A DNA stretch of 17,831 nucleotides, from IMG/VR virus record IMGVR_UViG_2695420624_000004. One strand, given 5' to 3'. Origin of the DNA: a virus (taxonomy: Duplodnaviria > Heunggongvirae > Uroviricota > Caudoviricetes). Shown in pieces: positions 1 through 17,831 of the stretch. Every line of letters starts with the position of its first letter. Positions within the stretch are counted from its first letter, which is position 1. The notes under the pieces are model-generated. The model was not told the origin of the DNA, ran no database searches, and was given only the letters and a program-made list of their open reading frames with translations. The position numbers were made by a program, and so were the translations under genes.

Positions 1-405
1 ATGGATCAGGTCGTTGTTTTTCAAAAGATGTTTGAGCAAGTGAGAAAAGAGCAAAACTTCTCCTGGTTTTATTCAGAATTAAAACATCACCGTATTGCAC
101 ATTACATTTATTATCTGGCTACGGATAACATCAGAATTATTACTCACGATGATACGGTTTTGTTATTAAGAGGAACCAGGAACCTGTTAAAAGTTAGTAC
201 GACCAAGAACCCTGCTAAAATAAAAGAGGCCGCATTGCTTCATATTTGCGGAAAATCTACATTTCGGGAATACTGTTCAACACTGGCAGGTGCGGGCGTT
301 TTCCGGTGGGTTACTGATGTTAATCATAACAAACGCAGTTACTACGCCATTGATAATACGCTTTTATATATTGAAGATGTAGAAAATAATAAACCATTAA
401 TCTAG
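1..405 (+). CDS. ycgX: YcgX-like small protein (134 aa), host gene flanking the prophage
   Basis: Complete ATG-to-stop ORF starting at base 1. Length and position (beyond iraM, distal to the icd fragment) match the icdC-iraM-ycgX arrangement I remember from E. coli K-12. Identity is from memory and synteny, not a search. Confidence 0.5.
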   Translation: MDQVVVFQKMFEQVRKEQNFSWFYSELKHHRIAHYIYYLATDNIRIITHDDTVLLLRGTRNLLKVSTTKNPAKIKEAALLHICGKSTFREYCSTLAGAGVFRWVTDVNHNKRSYYAIDNTLLYIEDVENNKPLI

Positions 406-611
406 CTAAAGTTGGATACTTAAGAAATGCTTCATAATTCAGTAAGGCATTAGCATAATGGAAATAAAAGTGCAGAGACTATCTCTATGGATGATTAATA
501 CTGTCTTTTTATTGTCACCCATAAATAATCACCAGACTAATACTATCAACTTGATATTTGAAATGTGATCACTTGACTTTTGATACGTTATTTTATAACG
601 GTTAACATATT

Positions 612-643
612 TATAAAAACAACGGCCGTGCCACACGTCCGTT
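612..643 (-). terminator. Terminator-like hairpin, diverged second copy of the icd terminator
   Basis: AACGGCCGTG-CCA-CACGTCCGTT stem-loop (one mismatch), followed on the minus strand by a T5 run. About 50 bp (611-660) aligns with the icd terminator region at 1476-1525, with compensatory stem changes. Confidence 0.45.
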
Positions 644-999
644 TCAATACTTAACGCACATGTATTTTGGTTTAGTCATCATCCGGTTATATGTATTTTA
701 GCCAGGAACAGGTTAAATCATTCCTATATAACTCAAAAATTGAAACCTTATTCTCATGTCATGCTTATATTCATTATTATCGTTATATAAAAAGGCAACC
801 ATAATGTTTAGCAAATTGGCACAAAGTAGCATAAAGGCTATGTTTTAATTACAGGATGTTCAGTCATTTGAATGTATAACATTATAGCTAAACAAATCTA
901 AAACGAAGTCAATAATTTATTGCTTTCACAAAATCTCATTTTGTTTAACATCCATTGAGATTCCTTGCTTTAAATTTTATTTTATATAAGCCATCATTT

Positions 1000-1040
1000 T
1001 AATTAATTTATTTTTTTGAGGGGGGGGGTAATATACTCAT
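1000..1040 (+). promoter_or_regulatory. Candidate iraM promoter (TAATAT -10-like element at 1029-1034)
   Basis: AT-rich region with a TAATAT hexamer about 70 bp upstream of the iraM start. No clear -35. Inferred from sequence only. Confidence 0.3.
1020..1028. repeat. G9 homopolymer preceded by T7, inside the putative iraM promoter
   Basis: Sequence reads TTTTTTT-GA-GGGGGGGGG-TAATAT at 1011-1034, about 78 bp upstream of the iraM ATG. The tract lies just upstream of a -10-like TAATAT. Confidence 0.9.
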
Positions 1041-1105
1041 ATGCAAAATCAAGAAATAAACATCCTAATGAACCATATTAAATACCGTGGGATAAGACAT
1101 AACAA

Positions 1106-1429
1106 ATGAAGTGGATAGTAATTGACACGGTAATTCAACCTACATGTGGTATATCTTTTTCAGCCATATGGGGTAATATGAAAATGATCATCTGGTATCA
1201 ATCTACTATATTTCTCCCTCCTGGCAGTATATTTACACCGGTTAAGTCTGGTATTATCCTTAAGGATAAAGAATATCCTATTACTATTTATCACATCGCA
1301 CCATTCAACAAGGATTTATGGAGTTTACTCAAAAGCAGTCAAGAGTGTCCTCCAGGAGAAAGCAAAATAACAAATAAATGTTTACATAATAGTTGCATTA
1401 TAAAAATATGCCCATATGGGCTCAAGTAA
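1106..1429 (+). CDS. iraM: IraM-like anti-adaptor protein (107 aa)
   Basis: 107-aa ORF ([13 protein letters not shown]...), AT-rich, divergent from and adjacent to the displaced icd fragment. Length and synteny match iraM (ycgW) as I remember it. Confidence 0.6.
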
Positions 1430-1475
1430 TGGGCTTCATATAAATATGCTCGATATGCTATTAATAATATCCACA

Positions 1476-1508
1476 TAAATAAAACAACGGGCGTGTTATA
1501 CGCCCGTT
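1476..1508 (-). terminator. icd Rho-independent terminator
   Basis: AACGGGCG-TGTTATA-CGCCCGTT hairpin, followed on the minus strand by GTTTTATTTAT, about 25 nt after the icd TAA stop. Confidence 0.7.
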
Positions 1509-1531
1509 TCAATATTTAACACATGGAGAGA

Positions 1532-1696
1532 TTACATGTTTTCGATGATCGCTTCACCAAACTCTGAACATTTCAGCAGCTTAGCGCCTTCCATCAGACG
1601 TTCGAAGTCATAAGTTACGGTCTTGGCATTGATTGCGCCTTCCATACCTTTAACAATCAGGTCAGCCGCTTCAGTCCAACCCATATGGCGCAGCAG
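1532..1696 (-). pseudogene. icd: Displaced 3' fragment of isocitrate dehydrogenase (icdC-type), last 54 codons plus stop
   Basis: Minus-strand translation reads [54 protein letters not shown], the Icd C-terminus. Homology stops abruptly at about 1696; upstream is unrelated AT-rich DNA. The 165-nt length matches the e14-type integration site in icd. Confidence 0.85.
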
Positions 1697-1885
1697 TATA
1701 TAAAAACCATGAATTCAAGTCATTGATATTTAACGATAAAAATTATTTTATTGTCTTTTTATTAGCCAAAATAAACTTTATTCAACCGTTTGATTTCATT
1801 GACGTTCGTTTTTATTTTGGGGAAAGGTTTTCTCTACCATTTATATCCAAATTACAAGTCTACATTTTATTAACATCTCAATACA

Positions 1886-1916
1886 TGTGAGGCCTTGCAG
1901 ACCTTTGTGAGACCTT
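1886..1916. repeat. Clustered direct repeats TGTGAG(G/A)CCTT / GACCTT in the att-proximal arm
   Basis: Reads TGTGAGGCCTT-GCAGACCTT-TGTGAGACCTT within 31 bp, about 200 bp inside the prophage from the att junction. Arrangement resembles recombinase arm-type sites. Confidence 0.4.
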
Positions 1917-2396
1917 ATGTGTCTCTGTTTTGTCCCAACTTATGTTAAGAGGCACATAATTAAAAATAAGATAACGATGCCGCCAAGCAGTGCAAAACCT
2001 TGTTTACTCCACGACTGTCTGCCCCATTATCTGCATACATAATTATCCTCCATAACTGAGATAAATGTCGGTTATGAGCGAACAACAGACGTTTAGTTTA
2101 TGATGGCTGTGTCTATACATTAAACATAACATCCATTACCGGCACCGCTTATTAATTGCTATCTGATATTGTCACTAAAAAAATAGGCATTCCCCGATAT
2201 AATAATCACAAAGAAGCTTTTGGTGCTGGCAATCGGTATACCTCATAGTGGACTGCGACTTTCCGGGCACGACAAGGATATATCAATGTATGAGCAGGAA
2301 AATTAGACCGTGGTGCGTCATATGATGACTAAGCACGGATAACAGCTACTTAATTGAAACTATTGATTATATTACAGCCAGTGCCTTATAGGATGG

Positions 2397-3518
2397 TTAG
2401 TCATCAACCGCGACTCCTGCACAATCATGGGCTATTGCCAGCAATTGTTTTTTAATTGCTTTAGCATCTACCGTCATATCTACTGTAGCAAAATGGATCT
2501 TATGTCCCTGAGTGACAACATACTCATTAAGCATATAGCCAACAGCTGGATGAAGTAGAAGACCAGCGGCATTGAGCGAAAGCGGATCCGTCTTGTTCTC
2601 CTGTGTTCTAAGGTAGGTATATAGCTGATAAATATAGCCATTACGTAGTGATTGCTCCCGATGCCAACCCTTTGTCAGAATCGAATTAAATTTGGTATCG
2701 ATAATAATACGCCGCTGGGCAGTCTTGTGTTCCAGAATAATGTCTGACTTCATTGTCGGGAAAATCTCTGCACTACCTGCACTTTGATCGCTCAACGCCC
2801 ATTTCAGCTCTTTCCCTGCAGAGACCTGCCAAGTTGTTTTGGCAAGGTGTACACGATATAAGCCAGCGATACCTTTTTCAAATAGTCTTCTCATCCAGTA
2901 AAGGTTATTTGAGGGCGCAGGTAAAAGATATTGGCCTTGATCTTCGGTCGGCATCAGCAGTTCAAAAGCTAATCGTGCGGCATCGACCATCGGTTTATCT
3001 GCGGCATCATGGCGTCCAAAACGCCACACTGAGGGTAATTCGCGGGGGGCAGGATATCCTCCATTTATCCCCTCACGGCGAAGTGATATTGCCATAAAAT
3101 GGCAATCTGCCGCCAAAGACGGTTTCACTATGATTGAGGCCAGACGTTCTAACGCACAGCGAACATAGCGATTTCGGGGGGTGTTGAGGGTTATGTCTTG
3201 AAAATGGCAGGCAACCTGTCCCCGTTCCAGCAGTTGATGACTGGCAGTATACAGTATGTCAATGCGCCCTCTCACCCGGTTCAGGGCCGCATGACAAGTT
3301 TGGTATCCCATATTTAAATTGCGACGTCGGCGCAGCGTAATCTCATGAAGGAGGATTGTCGCCACCAGGTCGGGGATTTCTGCTGGGTTATCTTCTACTG
3401 CGATCTGATTGCGCCCTAACTGGCGAAACAGATCTGAAGCGTACAGCATCAGCATCCAGATATTTCGCATGGGAATACGTGATGCTGTATGTTGCTCACT
3501 CCCGGTTATTGTCGTCAT
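2397..3518 (-). CDS. McrC-family nuclease subunit of a Type IV (modification-dependent) restriction system
   Basis: 373-aa ORF. N-terminal PMRNIWMLMLYA resembles the McrC N-terminus; the IIIDTKF...QSLRNGYIYQLYTYL block matches the McrC PD-(D/E)xK nuclease region. Start ATG overlaps the upstream stop as ATGA. Confidence 0.8.
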   Translation of the reverse strand: MTTITGSEQHTASRIPMRNIWMLMLYASDLFRQLGRNQIAVEDNPAEIPDLVATILLHEITLRRRRNLNMGYQTCHAALNRVRGRIDILYTASHQLLERGQVACHFQDITLNTPRNRYVRCALERLASIIVKPSLAADCHFMAISLRREGINGGYPAPRELPSVWRFGRHDAADKPMVDAARLAFELLMPTEDQGQYLLPAPSNNLYWMRRLFEKGIAGLYRVHLAKTTWQVSAGKELKWALSDQSAGSAEIFPTMKSDIILEHKTAQRRIIIDTKFNSILTKGWHREQSLRNGYIYQLYTYLRTQENKTDPLSLNAAGLLLHPAVGYMLNEYVVTQGHKIHFATVDMTVDAKAIKKQLLAIAHDCAGVAVDD

Positions 3519-5497
3519 TTTGCTAATAACACTTTTCTGGCTTCATCGACTTTATTTGGAGCATCGAACCAATATTCGGCGAGCAAAGGGCAGATCTCTG
3601 TATCAACGACTTGTTCATACCAAGCCTGGGCATCGTTGATTTTTTGGCCGATAGCTGGGGTGACATAGCTGTGACCGATACAAAACTGTGGTCCTAAGGT
3701 AACATCTTTTGCCAGCATATCGTTTAATACCGTCAGTCGAGATTTGATGAATGCTAACATGTCAAAATCAATTGCGTAATTATAATTTACCCAGTTTCTC
3801 CACGCGTCATTAAAAGCTGGCTTTAGATCGATAAACGCGAAACGACGGCGCAGCGCTAGGTCAAGTAGTGCGAGTGAGCGGTCTGCAATATTCATCGTAC
3901 CGATGATATATAGATTCTCAGGAATGTATATTTTTTCATCAGCATTTTTAGGATAGGAAAGAGATAATGCCTCAGTCGGCGTGCGTTTATCTGCTTCCAT
4001 CAACGTGAGTGTTTCACCGAAGATTTGCGCCGGATTGCCACGATTAATCTCTTCAATTATCACCACATATTTCGAGGTAGGATTATTGACTGCAGTTTTG
4101 ATTGCATTTACAAAAGGTCCATCAATTAGCGTCAATTGCCCTTCTTTACCTGGACGCCAGCCTCGAATAAAGTCTTCGTAAGAGAGGTTCGGGTGAAATT
4201 GCACCGCGCTAATACGCTCAGGTGCTTTTTCTCCCATCAAGCAGTACGCCAGACGTCGCGCTAACCAAGTTTTTCCAGTTCCGGGTGGTCCTTGTAATAT
4301 CAGGTTTTTCTTGTCGATCAGGCGCTGAAGTGTGAGTTGGATCTTAGCCTCTTCCAAGAAACAGCCATCCTGCACCAGATGACTGATGTCATAAGGAACG
4401 TGGGTGAGTTTTGGCAACAGCGCACTCTCTTCGACAGTTTCCTCAGTTATCGTCTGGGATTCGTTTTTCTCAAAATTCAGGTATTCATAATTTCCGGACT
4501 CGAGGGACTTTAACTCATCATCATTGCATAGTTTCTGTAGATAAAAGTAGATTGAGCTTGTAACAGTTTTGCTCTCAGGATGCTCTACCTTGAATACGTC
4601 CAAGTAGTTTTCTTCCAACTCCGAAGCAGTGAAATAAGGGCCATTTTTTTTCAGGCATAACGCCTTAATTTTATTCAGTAAAGAGGCTTTCCACGTTCTA
4701 TTTGCCACCTCATCTTTAGACTGGCTAAGATCTGTATTCCACGCTGATAAGGAAAGTTCTGGGAAAGAATGAACCGGATAGTTTGGTTGGGTAAAGACCT
4801 CGTTCAGCGCCCGCATAAGACTCAGGTAACTTTGTCCACTACAGCGACCTTTTGCCCCGTTTTTAATGATCTTAATGTTTAACACTGTCTGAATGTAATA
4901 CTGCGACTGGCTATCTAAAGTGGGGTAGAACCAAGGACGGGTCCAGTACAACCCCATGGTGAGATTCCAACCGACATTCATTACTGTAGAAGCGATGTCA
5001 TATGCGGCAGTGAAGTCTGCAGAGTTAGTATTCTGGTTATCCGCAAAGATCATTGCCTGTGAGAACATTTCCCACAAGCATTCAATGTCATTAGGGTCGC
5101 GTGACTTTTCATAACCAAAGAACCAAGATTTTTGGTTATTCAACAGAGGGATTCCGGCAAAGGAGTCAGGAATCGGTTCGTTCACGCCCAACAAATTCGC
5201 TAGCTTGGCAGCAATAATTTTGCGATTGCTGTCGGTCAAGTTACGATTGAACAAGCCCATAGTAGTAAACGGACAAATGTCTTTTAAGGGAAAGATCTCT
5301 CCCATAATAGATTTGTCCTGCAGATGGGACATTCCTTCCACACCCGAGGCAATTAGATGAATACCTTTGACTAATTCATCTCTACGATTTCGCCAAGTCA
5401 GTAACGCGTTGGCAAAAGCCTCATAAAAACTAGCCCAAGCAAACTTGCCATCATGTTCTGCTGTATCCACGGGAACTCCATTATACTTGTTGAGCAA
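3515..5497 (-). CDS. McrB-family AAA+ GTPase with an extended, uncharacterised N-terminal region of about 400 aa
   Basis: Walker A LILQGPPGTGKTW and a C-terminal IIGTMNIADRS...ALRRRFAF block typical of McrB. The annotated start is TTG; an in-frame GTG at 5470 with GGAG 5 nt upstream and a TATAAT just before it is a plausible alternative start. Confidence 0.85.
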   Translation of the reverse strand: MLNKYNGVPVDTAEHDGKFAWASFYEAFANALLTWRNRRDELVKGIHLIASGVEGMSHLQDKSIMGEIFPLKDICPFTTMGLFNRNLTDSNRKIIAAKLANLLGVNEPIPDSFAGIPLLNNQKSWFFGYEKSRDPNDIECLWEMFSQAMIFADNQNTNSADFTAAYDIASTVMNVGWNLTMGLYWTRPWFYPTLDSQSQYYIQTVLNIKIIKNGAKGRCSGQSYLSLMRALNEVFTQPNYPVHSFPELSLSAWNTDLSQSKDEVANRTWKASLLNKIKALCLKKNGPYFTASELEENYLDVFKVEHPESKTVTSSIYFYLQKLCNDDELKSLESGNYEYLNFEKNESQTITEETVEESALLPKLTHVPYDISHLVQDGCFLEEAKIQLTLQRLIDKKNLILQGPPGTGKTWLARRLAYCLMGEKAPERISAVQFHPNLSYEDFIRGWRPGKEGQLTLIDGPFVNAIKTAVNNPTSKYVVIIEEINRGNPAQIFGETLTLMEADKRTPTEALSLSYPKNADEKIYIPENLYIIGTMNIADRSLALLDLALRRRFAFIDLKPAFNDAWRNWVNYNYAIDFDMLAFIKSRLTVLNDMLAKDVTLGPQFCIGHSYVTPAIGQKINDAQAWYEQVVDTEICPLLAEYWFDAPNKVDEARKVLLAK

Positions 5498-5830
5498 TGA
5501 TAATTTATCTGTGTGAGTTTTAACATATTACTATCAGTTATAGAAAAATTTAACTATCCGATACAGAGAGCGGAATGCTGAATTTGACCTGACTTGCTTC
5601 CAACCAATTAAAATCAACTTATTTATCAATTGGTTATTTTGGCACATGGCGGTCATCAAGGCAATATCGCGTTGTCATAAGGTGTCGAGGCTCGGAGGTT
5701 CAAATCCTCTCATACAAAAAATAAATAAAATTAATGACGGTTGGAAATTATTCAATACACTCTCGAAAGTACATCAGCCAACCGCAGCACGTTATTGCAT
5801 ATAACGTTTCTGCGGCATATCACAAAACTA

Positions 5831-6415
5831 TTATTCCATAACAGGGATTGCAGGCCACTCAATATCAGGTGCAGTTGATGTATCAACACGATTCAGCAAC
5901 ACCCGATACTTCTTCCAGGCTTCAAGCAACGAGGTTTCTTCCTCCGTTGCGATTTCCAGATCTGCAGCATCCTGAAGCGGGGCAATATGCTCACTGGCTA
6001 CCTGCATCAGGCTGTTTTTTGTTTCTTCCGCCTCCCGGATCCGGAACAGTTTTTCTGCTTCCGTATCCTTCACCCAGGCTGTGCCGTTCCACTTCTGAAA
6101 CTCCCCTTCCGGGGATAACCAGGTGATATTTTCCGGTAGAGGTCCGAGTTCAGAAATAAATAACGAGTCGCCGGAAGCCACGTCATAGACGGTTTTTCCC
6201 CGATGATCTTCAACGAGATGCCACGATGCCTCATCACTGTTGAAAACAGCCACGAAGCCTACCGGAATATCTGGCGGTGCAATATAGGTACTGTTTGCTG
6301 GCAGACCTGTATGAGGCGGAATATATGCGTCACCTTCACCAATAAATTCATTAGTTCCGGCCAGCAGATTATAAATTTTTATGGTCCGTGGTTGTTCACT
6401 CATTCTGAATGCCAT
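5831..6415 (-). CDS. tfa: Tail fibre assembly protein (lambda Tfa-like)
   Basis: 194-aa ORF ([24 protein letters not shown]...WPAIPVME), near-identical to lambda Tfa as I remember it. Start overlaps the stf stop by 1 nt (TAATG). Confidence 0.9.
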
Positions 6416-11168: not shown

Positions 11169-12695
11169 TCAAAAATAAACCTCACCATCAACCATATATT
11201 TGAGAGTACTTATCGCCTGCTGGGCGGATATTGTTTTCATTAAAGGATAGTGTTTAAAAACAATGCCATTCATAAAATAGATATCACAGGTTTTATTATC
11301 TGTATTGATTATGATTTTTTCGAATGTTTTATAGGCAAGTGTACGACATAGCTCTCGCCCATTTTTACTGGTTAAGTCAATAGCATGAAAATCACCAAGT
11401 GAACTCACCGCTTTACTCTTCAAAGTTTTTAATGATACAGAAGCCCTTCGTAATTCCTTATCTAATACTCTGATTTTTTCTGCTATAGCGGTAACTTCAG
11501 GCGCAACAGATAATGCAGCAATTAAATTATTAATTTTCATCTGGAGCTCAATAATTTTCAACTCTAAAGTTTCATTAGCATCTTTCTTGTTTTCAACTGG
11601 TTGGATTTTACTACAATTAAAAAGCAACTCATTAATGATATTATAATCAACCAAATCTCTCTTTATTGATGGCCTGTCACATCGATGCAGTCTTCTCATC
11701 GGACAAACATAATAGCCATGCAAACTTCCAGATACCGCATGAACAATCATGGTATTACCACAAGCCTCGCACTTCATAACTGTTCGAAGTAGATTTATCA
11801 ACATAGGATTTTTGCTACTATTGCTAATACCAAAAGGTGCCAACCGAATTTCCTGCACAGCGTAAAACAAATCATCTGATATGACTCTGGGATAATAGCC
11901 AGCGATTTCACTTATTCCTTTACCTCTTGCACGATATGAAGGTACGCATATACCTATCAGAGCTTTATTCGCTAATAATTTTTCAATTACAGAAGGTCCC
12001 CATGCACTTTCTTTTCCTGAGAAATTCTTTACAGCATGATCATTTAAATACTTGGCTATTGCATTCAATGAGCGCCTTTCCATCCTGAGTTTAAAAATTA
12101 GCTCAATAGTTTTCACCCTGTCGGGGTCTGGAACAAAAGCCGTTCTTTTGTCATCCAATGAGAGCCATCTCGGACAAGACGCCGTCATAATCGTGCCTGA
12201 CTCCAGTGCATCCTGCCGTTTTTTCTTCCATGATAATTTAACCCGACTTGACTTTATCTCGCTTTCTTCATTTGCCCTTTGTGCTATAAGTATGGCTTTT
12301 ATTAATGAATATGGCTCATTCAATGAGTCAATATTATAGACTGTATTATCGCAAAGAGTTATAACATCAATACCGTGATTCAAAATCAATTTCAGACGCT
12401 CAATCGCCTCACCGACTTTTTCTCTTGAAAGTCTGTCCAGACTTTCAACTAACAATGTAGTCCCTGGCAATATATAACCATGTTCTATAGCATCTAAAAA
12501 TTCCGAAAAAGCTCCTGATTGTGCATGCTTTCCATTGAATGCGCTTAACCCCAAATCTTCATACGTTACGGTATCAAGGTAATAATCACTATTTACCTTT
12601 AGCCATTCAGTAATAAGCCTTCTCTGGCGGTTTAATGAATCACCAGACATCTGACTTGGTGATGAAAATCGCATATATGCTATGGCTTTTTTCAT
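11169..12695 (-). CDS. ybcK: Large serine recombinase (YbcK-like)
   Basis: 508 aa. N-terminal resolvase-type catalytic domain (AIAYMRFSSPSQ with the presumed serine nucleophile), recombinase domain and a Cys-rich zinc-ribbon region (CEACG...CPMRRLHRC). Length and position next to emrE match DLP12 ybcK. Confidence 0.8.
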   Translation of the reverse strand: MKKAIAYMRFSSPSQMSGDSLNRQRRLITEWLKVNSDYYLDTVTYEDLGLSAFNGKHAQSGAFSEFLDAIEHGYILPGTTLLVESLDRLSREKVGEAIERLKLILNHGIDVITLCDNTVYNIDSLNEPYSLIKAILIAQRANEESEIKSSRVKLSWKKKRQDALESGTIMTASCPRWLSLDDKRTAFVPDPDRVKTIELIFKLRMERRSLNAIAKYLNDHAVKNFSGKESAWGPSVIEKLLANKALIGICVPSYRARGKGISEIAGYYPRVISDDLFYAVQEIRLAPFGISNSSKNPMLINLLRTVMKCEACGNTMIVHAVSGSLHGYYVCPMRRLHRCDRPSIKRDLVDYNIINELLFNCSKIQPVENKKDANETLELKIIELQMKINNLIAALSVAPEVTAIAEKIRVLDKELRRASVSLKTLKSKAVSSLGDFHAIDLTSKNGRELCRTLAYKTFEKIIINTDNKTCDIYFMNGIVFKHYPLMKTISAQQAISTLKYMVDGEVYF

Positions 12696-12950: not shown

Positions 12951-13283
12951 TTAATGTGGTGTGCTTCGTGACAATAAATTAATAACCAACACACCGGCAC
13001 AAATCAACATCATGCCTATAATGGCTGGCAGGTCCAACCGTTGGCCGAAAAATCCCCATGATAGTAAGCTAATCAGGACAATACCGACTCCTGACCAGAT
13101 AGCATAAGCAATCCCTGTAGGAATATAAGCCAGCGTCTGAGCTAATAACCAGAATGATGCACAATAACAAATAATTGTACCAACAGATGGCCATAACCGT
13201 GTAAAACCTTCTGAAAACTTCATTAAGGTTGTACCAATGACCTCTGCAAGTATTGCACCACCAAGATAAATATAAGGATTCAT
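12951..13283 (-). CDS. emrE: SMR-family multidrug efflux protein EmrE (110 aa)
   Basis: MNPYIYLGGAILAEVIGTTLMKFSEGF...LLSRSTPH is essentially the EmrE sequence. The ORF track's 128-aa version starts 18 codons upstream; the true start is the ATG at 13283. Confidence 0.9.
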   Translation of the reverse strand: MNPYIYLGGAILAEVIGTTLMKFSEGFTRLWPSVGTIICYCASFWLLAQTLAYIPTGIAYAIWSGVGIVLISLLSWGFFGQRLDLPAIIGMMLICAGVLVINLLSRSTPH

Positions 13284-13350
13284 AGCATATTCTTTCCTGT
13301 TCAAACTGGAGAGAATTGTACTACAGTTTGAACTCAACTCACCTGTTTCA

Positions 13351-15238: not shown

Positions 15239-15393
15239 CGCATCCTCACGATAATATCCGGGTAGGCGCGATCACTTTCGTCTACTCCATTACAAAGCGA
15301 GGCTGGGTATTTCCCGGCCTTTCTGTTATCAGAAATCCACTGAAAGCACAGCGGCTGGCTGAGAAGATAAATAACAAACAGGAGGATATATGA
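15235..15393 (+). CDS. Small 52-aa ORF, lambda orf60a-like, coupled to exo
   Basis: [55 protein letters not shown] overlaps the exo stop (ATGA) and its stop overlaps the next ATG (ATATGA). Not in the ORF track because it is under 60 aa. Resemblance to lambda orf60a is from memory. Confidence 0.5.
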
Positions 15394-16454
15394 GTCAGGT
15401 TGGTAATCATTCATTCGAATTTCCGGCATCGCAAGGTGTACAGGGTGGTACTGTTACACTCTTCCTTACCATACCAGGAAGATCGCTGGCTCGTTTCCTC
15501 GCTTCAGATAATTACGGCCATACACTGGAACGCTCTCAGCGAGAAATTAATCCAAATCGAGTACGAAAATTTTTAAATTATCTCACTAACGCAGACTCAA
15601 GAAATGAGCCTTTTATCATTCCCCCTCTCGTAGGTAACTGTGATTCGAATATAGAATTTGTACCGTTTGGCAACACAAATGTTGGTATAGCCAGAATTCC
15701 CCTCGACGCCGAAATAAAACTTTTTGATGGTCAACATCGTGCAGCTGGCATTGAGATATTTTGCCGAAGTTCCCCATCAACGCTCATGGTTCCCATGATG
15801 CTTACAATGAATCTGCCGCTAAAAACCCGGCAGCAGTTCTTTTCGGACATAAATAACAACGTTTCTAAGCCATCAGCGACCATCAATATGGCGTATAACG
15901 GCCGGGATGATATTGCTCAGGGAATGATATCCTTCCTGACCCAACATACTGTATTTGCCGATATAACCGATTTTGAACACAACGTAGTGCCATTAAAAAG
16001 TAATATGTGGGTGAGTTTCAAGGCACTCACTGATGCAACGTCAAAGTTCGCTAGGAACGGCAATCAACAACTTGAAATGGGATATATAGAATCTGTCTGG
16101 GAGGCATGGATTACACTAACTCAGATTGACTCAATCCGACATGGTGTACACCACGCTACGTACAAGCGCGATTATATTCAGTTCCATGGAGTAATGATTA
16201 ACGCTTTCGGTTTTGCGGTTCAACAGATGATGGTTAATCATTCCATCGCAGAAATAACTTCTATGATCGAAAAACTATGTGCAACTACCAGCTCTGCAGA
16301 AAGAGAGGATTTTTTTCTGATGGATAACTGGGCGGGGATCTGCACGAAAGCCAGCCAGGAAAAACTATCTGTTATTGCCAATGTGGCAGCGCAGAAAGCA
16401 GCAGCAAACAGACTGATACAAGCTTTTACCAAAGGAAGTCTGGAAACAACTTAA
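15390..16454 (+). CDS. DGQHR-domain (DndB-like, ParB/Srx-type) protein, 354 aa
   Basis: Literal motif FDGQHRAAGIE at about residues 113-123, in the position expected for DndB/DGQHR proteins. Translationally coupled to the upstream small ORF and followed by a terminator. Confidence 0.7.
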   Translation: MSQVGNHSFEFPASQGVQGGTVTLFLTIPGRSLARFLASDNYGHTLERSQREINPNRVRKFLNYLTNADSRNEPFIIPPLVGNCDSNIEFVPFGNTNVGIARIPLDAEIKLFDGQHRAAGIEIFCRSSPSTLMVPMMLTMNLPLKTRQQFFSDINNNVSKPSATINMAYNGRDDIAQGMISFLTQHTVFADITDFEHNVVPLKSNMWVSFKALTDATSKFARNGNQQLEMGYIESVWEAWITLTQIDSIRHGVHHATYKRDYIQFHGVMINAFGFAVQQMMVNHSIAEITSMIEKLCATTSSAEREDFFLMDNWAGICTKASQEKLSVIANVAAQKAAANRLIQAFTKGSLETT

Positions 16455-17162: not shown

Positions 17163-17831
17163 ATGTGAACCGCCCCGGGTTTCCTGGAGAGTGTTTTATC
17201 TGTGAACTCAGGCTGCCAGATCATCGTTTCCGATGGAAGCATAATAAGCTTTTTCTGCTTCTGCCGGAGGAGTATGGCCCAGCCTTTCCAGCAATCGTCG
17301 ATTGTTATACCAGTCCACCCACGTGAGTGTGGCCAGTTCCACTTCTGCACGGTTTTTCCAGCTCTTACGGTGTATTACCTCCGCTTTGTAAAGACCATTG
17401 ATGCTCTCCGCCATCGCGTTGTCATACGAGTCGCCTGTACTTCCTGTTGATGCCAGTAATCCGGCTTCCTTAAGCCGCTGTGTGTAGGCCAGCGATACAT
17501 ACTGAGAACCTTTATCACTGTGATGGACCGTGCCGGACGGTCGACGGGCCCATAACGCCTGCTCCAGTGCATCCAGCACGAATGTCGTTTCCATGGACGA
17601 TGAGACCCGCCACCCCACGATGTATCCGGCAAACACATCAATGATGAACGCCACATAGACGAAGCCCCGCCATGTGCTGACGTAAGTAAAATCAGCCACC
17701 CACAGCTGGTCAGGTCGTTCTGCCACGAACTGACGGTTTACGCGGTCGCCTGCGGCAACGGCTTTCCGGCTGATGGTCGTACGGACCTTTTTACCCCGGA
17801 GAACACCGGCAAGTCCCATAACCGCCATGAG
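17163..17831 (-). mobile_element. IS3-family insertion sequence (IS629/IS3411-like end), truncated by the window edge
   Basis: Terminal inverted repeat beginning TGAACCGCCCCGGGTTTCCTGGAGAG at 17163, about 45 bp from the transposase stop. Only the orfB-proximal end is present. Confidence 0.75.
17208..17828 (-). CDS. IS3-family transposase OrfB (DDE integrase core), partial; N-terminus outside the window
   Basis: 206 aa of open frame running to the window edge. Contains IS3-family DDE-core-like blocks (HSDKGSQY, DNAMAES). Confidence 0.8.
   Translation of the reverse strand: MAVMGLAGVLRGKKVRTTISRKAVAAGDRVNRQFVAERPDQLWVADFTYVSTWRGFVYVAFIIDVFAGYIVGWRVSSSMETTFVLDALEQALWARRPSGTVHHSDKGSQYVSLAYTQRLKEAGLLASTGSTGDSYDNAMAESINGLYKAEVIHRKSWKNRAEVELATLTWVDWYNNRRLLERLGHTPPAEAEKAYYASIGNDDLAA

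Follow-up and report, generated by a model that had tools for sequence, protein, structure and literature searches.

The window analysed here, the whole 17,831-nucleotide stretch of a virus of the Caudoviricetes (IMG/VR record IMGVR_UViG_2695420624_000004), carries on its minus strand two adjacent genes, at positions 2397 to 5497, for an McrB-like GTPase and an McrC-like nuclease. This pair is best explained, with a probability of about 0.7, as a horizontally mobile restriction cassette of the McrBC family (Type IV, modification-dependent and GTP-driven) with both genes intact, which is carried as cargo just inside attR of a degraded lambdoid prophage at icd and in which the reader, a DUF8425 domain followed by a winged helix (wH), differs from that of EcoKMcrBC. 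The predicted large subunit combines DUF8425, a DpnI-type winged helix and the McrB AAA+ GTPase. Judged from its sequence, the system is a real and probably functional variant of a known one, in which DUF8425 would be the module that engages DNA, conserved throughout a very large McrB clade, and the winged helix a second reader that has been added and evolves faster.

The motor and the nuclease are the parts that tie the pair to the McrBC family. The McrB-like open reading frame (ORF) occupies 3515..5497 on the minus strand, and residue numbers of this protein follow the 660-aa ORF throughout. Its AAA+ GTPase domain and lid (residues 378-660; 3518..4366, minus strand), with a match to PF28529 McrB_lid, contain on the same strand the Walker A motif GPPGTGKT (residues 403-410; 4268-4291), the Walker B motif EEINR (residue 482; 4040-4054) and the NxxD signature in the form NIAD (residues 536-539; 3881-3892). 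Pfam AAA_5 matches residues 398-553 at E 8e-27, and the EcoKMcrB chains in the PDB (6hz4, 6ut6 and 7vsr) give E values of about 1e-75 (best 6e-76), over residues 369-652 only; BLASTP against K-12 McrB gives 47% identity over 282 aa of the motor. The 5-methylcytosine (5mC)-specific NCBIfam McrB model, NF008457, scores 262.5 bits against a cut-off of 637, with only model positions 176-452 aligned, and by this measure the McrB-like protein is not an orthologue of EcoKMcrB. The product of the downstream gene matches Pfam McrBC (PF10117) at E 5e-21 and exceeds the cut-off of the NCBIfam equivalog NF007277 (356 bits against 338), with 24% identity to EcoKMcrC. Its D259, D274 and K276 (window 2691-2744) align with D244, D257 and K259 of the EcoK protein, forming a PD-(D/E)xK motif; the three EcoK residues reportedly have the catalytic role in that nuclease. 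Both ORFs are full length with all catalytic motifs present. Homologous loci also pair with McrC, and two of them are part of defence islands, with Mrr, MmeI or GmrSD genes alongside. By motif content and gene order the pair is an McrBC-family motor and nuclease, namely an AAA+ protein with every expected motif and an adjacent, co-oriented McrC. The original prediction, which had read McrB GTPase motifs in the upstream gene, an McrC-like product in the downstream gene and about 400 aa ahead of Walker A, agrees with these positions, at which 402 residues precede the motif in the ORF numbering.

The two genes share an ATGA stop/start overlap at 3515..3518 on the minus strand, indicative of translational coupling, and the overlap is kept in Enterobacter (GTATGACC) and Pectobacterium (AATGACG), so that the coupling proposed earlier extends across genera. 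The McrC gene (2397..3518, minus strand) encodes 373 aa from an ATG. RefSeq/PGAP starts the protein instead at M17 (357 aa; window 3470-3518 affected), thereby removing both a RIP motif and the ATGA coupling. The motif, RIP(M/L/V)RN(I/L)W, begins upstream of M17 in every McrC homologue. The M17 start was therefore rejected, since motif and overlap are both conserved in Enterobacter and Pectobacterium, and the coupled 373-aa McrC, which had been read from the start, is the better model. For the McrB-like gene, the frame opens at TTG 5497, and the true start is most likely GTG 5470, giving 651 aa (WP_000379040.1), because GGAG sits 5 nt upstream of it, the Enterobacter homologue begins at an equivalent ATG behind the same GGAG, and RefSeq/PGAP together with most database entries use this start; the upstream protein had earlier been given as 660 aa, a length that probably has to be corrected. 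The GC fraction is 0.434 in the McrB-like gene and 0.473 in the McrC gene, compared with 0.482 in the tail fibre assembly gene (tfa) and 0.533 in the tail fibre gene, which fits the earlier remark that the cassette is richer in AT than the tail-fibre genes.

The N-terminal half sets the protein apart. An all-alpha DUF8425 domain (PF28527) covers ORF residues 10-262 (4712..5470, minus strand). The assignment comes from precomputed matches, both on P0001, which has 100% identity with the window protein, and on every homologue listed, the family being newer than the local copy of Pfam. An AlphaFold2 model of the domain is all-helical, with a predicted local distance difference test score (pLDDT) of 93 and a predicted template-modelling score (pTM) of 0.91. 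In a profile search of 1.84 billion representatives the family comprised at least 2,417 clusters at 50% identity with E<=1e-3, and 872 with E<=1e-30. Conserved polar residues include R39, D73, T78, N84, R85, R92, R133, D137, R187 and D195, and members from distant phyla are 50-60% identical to the E. coli domain, approximately the level seen for the motor. Scans of the N-terminal region with Pfam, NCBIfam and PADLOC returned nothing except a weak DpnI_C match; Pfam on residues 1-263 gave no match even at E 10, an HMMER profile of DUF8425 against all PDB sequences gave zero matches at E<=10, and 24 family members run against Pfam at E<=10 gave nothing relevant. A literature search for PF28527, DUF8425, WP_000379040 and WP_001486526 found no paper. 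The EcoK-type DUF3578, a LlaJI-type B3 domain and SRA, EVE, YTH or PUA readers were considered for the E. coli protein and rejected on the all-helical model and the empty profile searches. What had been described as a large unrecognised N-terminal region is indeed unusually long, differs from the EcoK DUF3578 and has no Pfam reader; it is recognisable, however, as DUF8425 plus a DpnI_C-type winged helix. Of the folds suggested for a check of residues 1-400, the winged helix was found, SRA, EVE/PUA and YTH were not matched, and Foldseek added weak HhH-GPD matches only. The further suggestion that the whole region of about 400 aa determines specificity is unlikely, since DUF8425 is about as conserved as the motor and the winged helix is the fast-evolving part.

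The relatives show other arrangements. Among 148 listed representatives of the DUF8425 family, to which all architecture counts refer, the domain begins within the first 30 residues in 71, a PUA-like N-terminal extension of 140-160 residues is present in 62, and a winged helix in 3 (about 2%). The extension matches EVE/YTH readers as well as the N-terminal domains of archaeal McrB from T. gammatolerans (6p0g) and S. marinus (6n0s). The common architecture thus appears to be a PUA-like reader, DUF8425 and the motor, with the E. coli protein lacking the PUA part and having a winged helix inserted after DUF8425. All nine long representatives that were scanned have the McrB AAA_5 domain C-terminal to DUF8425, some of them with TPR repeats too, and seemingly "short" members proved to be truncated or disrupted by insertion sequences (IS). 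DUF8425 itself most likely engages DNA, because McrB proteins need a DNA-binding N-terminus and in about half of the listed relatives it is the only N-terminal module that was detected. The domain also seems portable and able to work outside McrB, given a 494-aa protein on a Bacteroidales plasmid (Parabacteroides, L092:4998-6482) in which DUF8425 at residues 2-185 (hhalign probability 98.7%) is followed by an FRG domain at 246-329 with no AAA+. Long N-terminal TPR arrays precede DUF8425-McrB in two proteins (P0123 and P0172; 1,025-1,368 aa); to our knowledge, such arrays have not been described as an McrB architecture. On megaplasmid pMP1 of D. radiodurans R1 (L093:4277-6886), a tblastn match at 28% identity to the DUF8425 and winged-helix region starts just upstream of, and runs into, an annotated "McrB family protein", with McrC downstream and a DNA methyltransferase a few kb upstream.

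The winged helix, of the DpnI_C type, spans residues 266-339 (4481..4702, minus strand), with the recognition helix P307-D326 at window 4520-4579. A family profile of 11 sequences matches the C-terminal winged helix of DpnI (4esj residues 188-256) at E 3.7e-12 over the whole domain, and a precomputed PF17726 match carries a "weak" mark in the Pectobacterium homologue and none in that of Enterobacter. In DpnI, the two methyl groups of N6-methyladenine (m6A) in Gm6ATC lie in pockets built by E228, K229, R231 and Q232, with Q235 nearby (PMC3424567). These five residues align with S314, S315, Y317, F318 and Q321, so that four of the five are replaced and only the equivalent of Q235 is kept, in a recognition helix that is unusually aromatic (SSIYFYLQ). 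Helbrecht et al. found that about 10% of winged-helix fusions keep the Gm6ATC motif, the rest probably reading another mark (PMC11037411). The domain as a whole is less conserved than the rest of the protein: identity in P0016-18 is 54-59% for the winged helix, 71-72% for DUF8425 and 77-78% for AAA+, and in P0020 the values are 37%, 66% and 84%. As it is diverging faster than its neighbours, it looks like a specificity module under diversifying pressure. The winged helix would not be a Gm6ATC reader, and the loss of the pocket residues would fit a Dam+ host. E. coli is Dam+ and usually Dcm+. From the loss of the DpnI pocket residues together with the stable carriage of the cassette in Dam+/Dcm+ E. 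coli, we infer that the target is neither Dam nor Dcm methylation. As to what it is instead, a tentative guess, more doubtful than not, would be an adenine modification that faces the major groove and lies outside the Dam context, or else a bulkier hypermodification of phage DNA.

By analogy with EcoKMcrBC, the AAA+ domains would form a hexameric ring, into which McrC would plug to stimulate GTP hydrolysis. The N-terminal modules would tether the complex to marked DNA, with DUF8425 and the winged helix together recognising a mark other than Dam or Dcm methylation; the complex would then reel in DNA by GTP-driven translocation, and the PD-(D/E)xK site of McrC would cut it.

The position of the cassette agrees with its being cargo. 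In the window the order is tfa, cassette, AT-rich spacer, icd' fragment with attR (about 1698), iraM and ycgX. The prophage is integrated in icd, and its duplicated icd' fragment and attR junction lie at 1534..1698 on the minus strand, annotated as a partial isocitrate dehydrogenase; the prophage-end spacer, for which strand does not apply, fills 1699..2339 (0.64 kb; GC 0.36 over 1702-2396); and tfa, the phage-side boundary of the slot, is at 5831..6415 on the minus strand. Window 1-1698 is 99.8% identical to ycgX-iraM-icdC of K-12, the match ending exactly at the attR boundary of e14, and past 1699 there is zero nucleotide similarity between the window prophage and e14. The window prophage is thus not e14 itself, which was ruled out on this ground, and is a different lambdoid prophage at the same icd site. 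Strain FORC064 has an identical context, icd-int-xis ... tfa / McrB-like / McrC / icd' / iraM. The content of the slot varies: e14 of K-12 has pinE-mcrA there, and an ST131 strain and one other strain (loci L094 and L095) have sitABCD between icd' and the tail-fibre genes. The first approximately 240 bp inside attR (within window 1699-1950) are common to about 1,476 E. coli genomes beside icd', with different cargo beyond, and the remainder of the spacer was seen only together with the cassette. The icd attR slot is a variable cargo space for att-proximal prophage genes ("morons"), alternating between defence genes (mcrA, the McrBC cassette) and virulence cargo (sitABCD). Both the placement between tfa and the att junction and the comparison with mcrA in e14, which the original prediction had offered, are upheld by the icd' attR at about 1698 and by what occupies the same slot elsewhere.

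Furthermore, the cassette itself is a mobile unit. A Pectobacterium chromosome (L010 8894-12128) matches window 2340-5578 contiguously at 86.6% nucleotide identity by blastn, which delimits a two-gene cassette of about 3.24 kb (2340..5578, minus strand), and an Enterobacter locus matches 2464-5428 at 69% by blastn; in both genera the two genes stand by themselves as an insertion among housekeeping genes. Of 5,426 complete E. coli genomes, 317 (about 6%) have the cassette, 289 of them with at least 80% query coverage, and some strains have insertions in or beside it (IS3 in ML35, IS66 in FORC064). No methyltransferase partner was found at any locus examined, which included FORC064-type E. coli, Enterobacter and Pectobacterium.

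Beyond tfa, the host prophage contains a tail fibre gene, a P22-antirepressor fragment, a serine recombinase, an SMR transporter, lambda P, a YqaJ exonuclease, a DndB/DGQHR protein and an IS3 fragment. The large serine recombinase (11169-12695, minus strand) and the SMR/EmrE-like transporter (12951-13337, minus strand) are both AT-rich (GC about 0.35) and embedded in the remnant. The DndB/DGQHR-domain protein (15390-16454, plus strand; PF14072, E 4e-46), in the prophage early region, is possibly further cargo related to defence or modification. The IS3-type integrase fragment lies at 17208-17828, and the element as a whole has undergone heavy rearrangement. Inside tfa, Rfam IS009 (RF02111) matches 5874-6000 on the minus strand at 131.9 bits, above the gathering score, in a match clipped by the search range. 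Between the cassette and tfa, outside 2340-5578, the string ggtgtcgaggctcggaggttcaaatcctctc at 5680-5712 (plus strand) resembles a tRNA T-arm and 3' end; neither ARAGORN nor Rfam detected a tRNA there, and the string may be a relic att site or a phage tRNA fragment.

The function of DUF8425 can be read in other ways. One unlikely reading, kept as a lead only, makes it a diverged HhH-GPD module, of the DNA-glycosylase fold, that would flip out, and perhaps excise, a base carrying a modification or damage, the winged helix playing an accessory part. It was raised by Foldseek, whose top 39 PDB matches are all HhH-GPD glycosylases (Ogg2, OGG1, MutY and AGOG; best E 0.05, probability 0.77, template-modelling (TM) score about 0.30). 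The model itself shows a helix at 150-160, a hairpin, a helix at 169-177, a Pro-rich loop and then D195 capping the next helix; D195 is 93% conserved, the spacing equals that of "GVG...FPILD" in MutY, and the best hhalign segment against MutY pairs FPTLD with FPILD. The portability of the domain, as in the FRG fusion without AAA+, would also suit such a module. However, HMMER profile searches against PDB and Pfam were empty, hhalign against E. coli MutY was not significant (P 0.29), and neither Nth nor an 81-sequence Nth profile gave significance, the latter (P 0.085) aligning in a different and structurally implausible register; that profile is shallow, with orthologues of at least 71% identity only. 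The hairpin glycines (hPGhG) are moreover conserved in only 52-54%, and no Lys occupies the position used by bifunctional glycosylases. Quite improbable, in turn, is a DUF8425 that does not read DNA at all and is instead regulatory, oligomerising or sensitive to a phage protein, the winged helix alone binding DNA and the whole possibly acting in abortive infection as a nuclease that depends little on modification. Conservation close to that of the motor is unusual for a specificity domain, no DNA-binding fold was matched with confidence, and DUF8425 also occurs with TPR or FRG partners. Against this stand the relatives, about half of those listed, in which no other N-terminal module was detected, and the self-toxicity to be expected of a stand-alone nuclease if it cut unmodified DNA in the absence of a cognate methyltransferase, none being encoded beside the cassette.

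Two further readings concern the system as a whole. That the cassette now has no function, as silent and decaying cargo of a dead prophage, is suggested by the rearrangement of the prophage with IS elements, by the IS copies in or beside the cassette in ML35 and FORC064 and by the lack of a detected promoter; it is very unlikely in view of full-length ORFs, intact motifs, 289 genomes with at least 80% coverage and retention in other genera at 86.6% nucleotide identity. The least probable reading of all is a redundant paralogue of EcoKMcrBC restricting 5mC and 5-hydroxymethylcytosine DNA in the same manner. RefSeq does name the nuclease "5-methylcytosine-specific ... McrC", and the motor is close to that of EcoK McrB, but DUF3578/ADAM is absent, the NCBIfam McrB model aligns over its C-terminal 277 positions only and far under the cut-off, the N-terminal model is all-alpha against the beta-rich EcoK reader, and McrC is only 24% identical. 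The preferred reading, a mobile and probably functional McrBC cassette with a DUF8425 and winged-helix reader, has its own counterweights. DNA binding by DUF8425 is deduced only from its position and from weak fold matches, and some of the DUF8425-only relatives may be metagenomic ORFs truncated at the N-terminus. The window protein alone scores 14.6 bits (E 0.039) against Pfam DpnI_C (PF17726), under the 23-bit cut-off. The prophage carrying the cassette is a remnant, no deposited phage genome carries the cassette (a DUF8425 or winged-helix match in 0 of 50,697 phage genomes), and a promoter scan of the cassette stayed at chance level with no standout promoter. The sole attempt to purify a pair consisting of an N-terminal domain (NTD)-wH-NTPase and McrC failed (PMC11037411).

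What the reader domains recognise is what defines a Type IV restriction enzyme. New Type IV readers have given both biology, in the phage modifications that they attack, and tools such as DpnI, MspJI and PvuRts1I. The system described here is natural, intact and borne by E. coli, and can be cloned and directly tested with standard E. coli genetics. It offers an entry point for the function of DUF8425, which marks thousands of McrB clusters, and for asking whether wH-McrB fusions read adenine modifications other than Dam. Should the glycosylase resemblance prove true, which is improbable, a very large McrBC clade (at least 2,400 clusters at 50% identity) would couple glycosylase-like recognition of lesions or modifications to a translocating GTPase-nuclease, and such a reader would be a principle undescribed for Type IV restriction. 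The reader arrangement in itself would be of little surprise to specialists, as reader-domain shuffling is expected in Type IV systems.

Among known systems, the architecture is that of the NTD-wH-NTPase class with McrC, already described in 2024 by Helbrecht et al. without characterisation (PMC11037411). The cassette agrees with that description with no known difference, the NTD here being DUF8425 and the host Dam+ E. coli; the supplements of the same paper list no enterobacterial NTD-wH-NTPase example, and in the CoCoNuT census of McrBC systems there is no mention of a glycosylase or of a DpnI-type domain. The PUA(EVE/YTH)-DUF8425-McrB relatives share the motor and DUF8425, while the E. coli protein has no PUA-like domain and has the winged helix after DUF8425 instead. 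With the C-terminal winged helix of R.DpnI (4esj/4kyw) it shares a homologous fold, the LQxL(R)D core of the recognition helix and Q321 (= Q235), but E228, K229, R231 and Q232 have become S314, S315, Y317 and F318, the DpnI domain is fused to a PD-(D/E)xK nuclease whereas that of the cassette is fused to a motor, and the host of the cassette methylates GATC. The HhH-GPD glycosylases, including OGG1, MutY and the Ogg2 enzymes Tm1821, SsOgg and MjaOgg, differ from DUF8425 in showing no significant sequence or profile similarity to it, a TM score of about 0.3 and a catalytic Lys that DUF8425 lacks. Prophage e14 likewise has a Type IV restriction gene, that of EcoKMcrA, in the same chromosomal slot bounded by the tail-fibre genes and icd' attR, but EcoKMcrA is an unrelated single-chain NEco-HNH enzyme in a prophage backbone that is unrelated at the nucleotide level. 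In conclusion, the likeness to EcoKMcrBC lies in the two-gene operon with a stop/start overlap, the 47%-identical GTPase with Walker A, Walker B and NxxD, and the aligned PD-(D/E)xK residues of McrC, whereas the reader of EcoKMcrBC is the 5mC-flipping DUF3578/ADAM and that of the cassette is DUF8425 with a winged helix, the two McrC proteins are only 24% identical, and EcoKMcrBC resides in the hsd-mrr-mcr (immigration control) region while the present system is prophage cargo beside attR.

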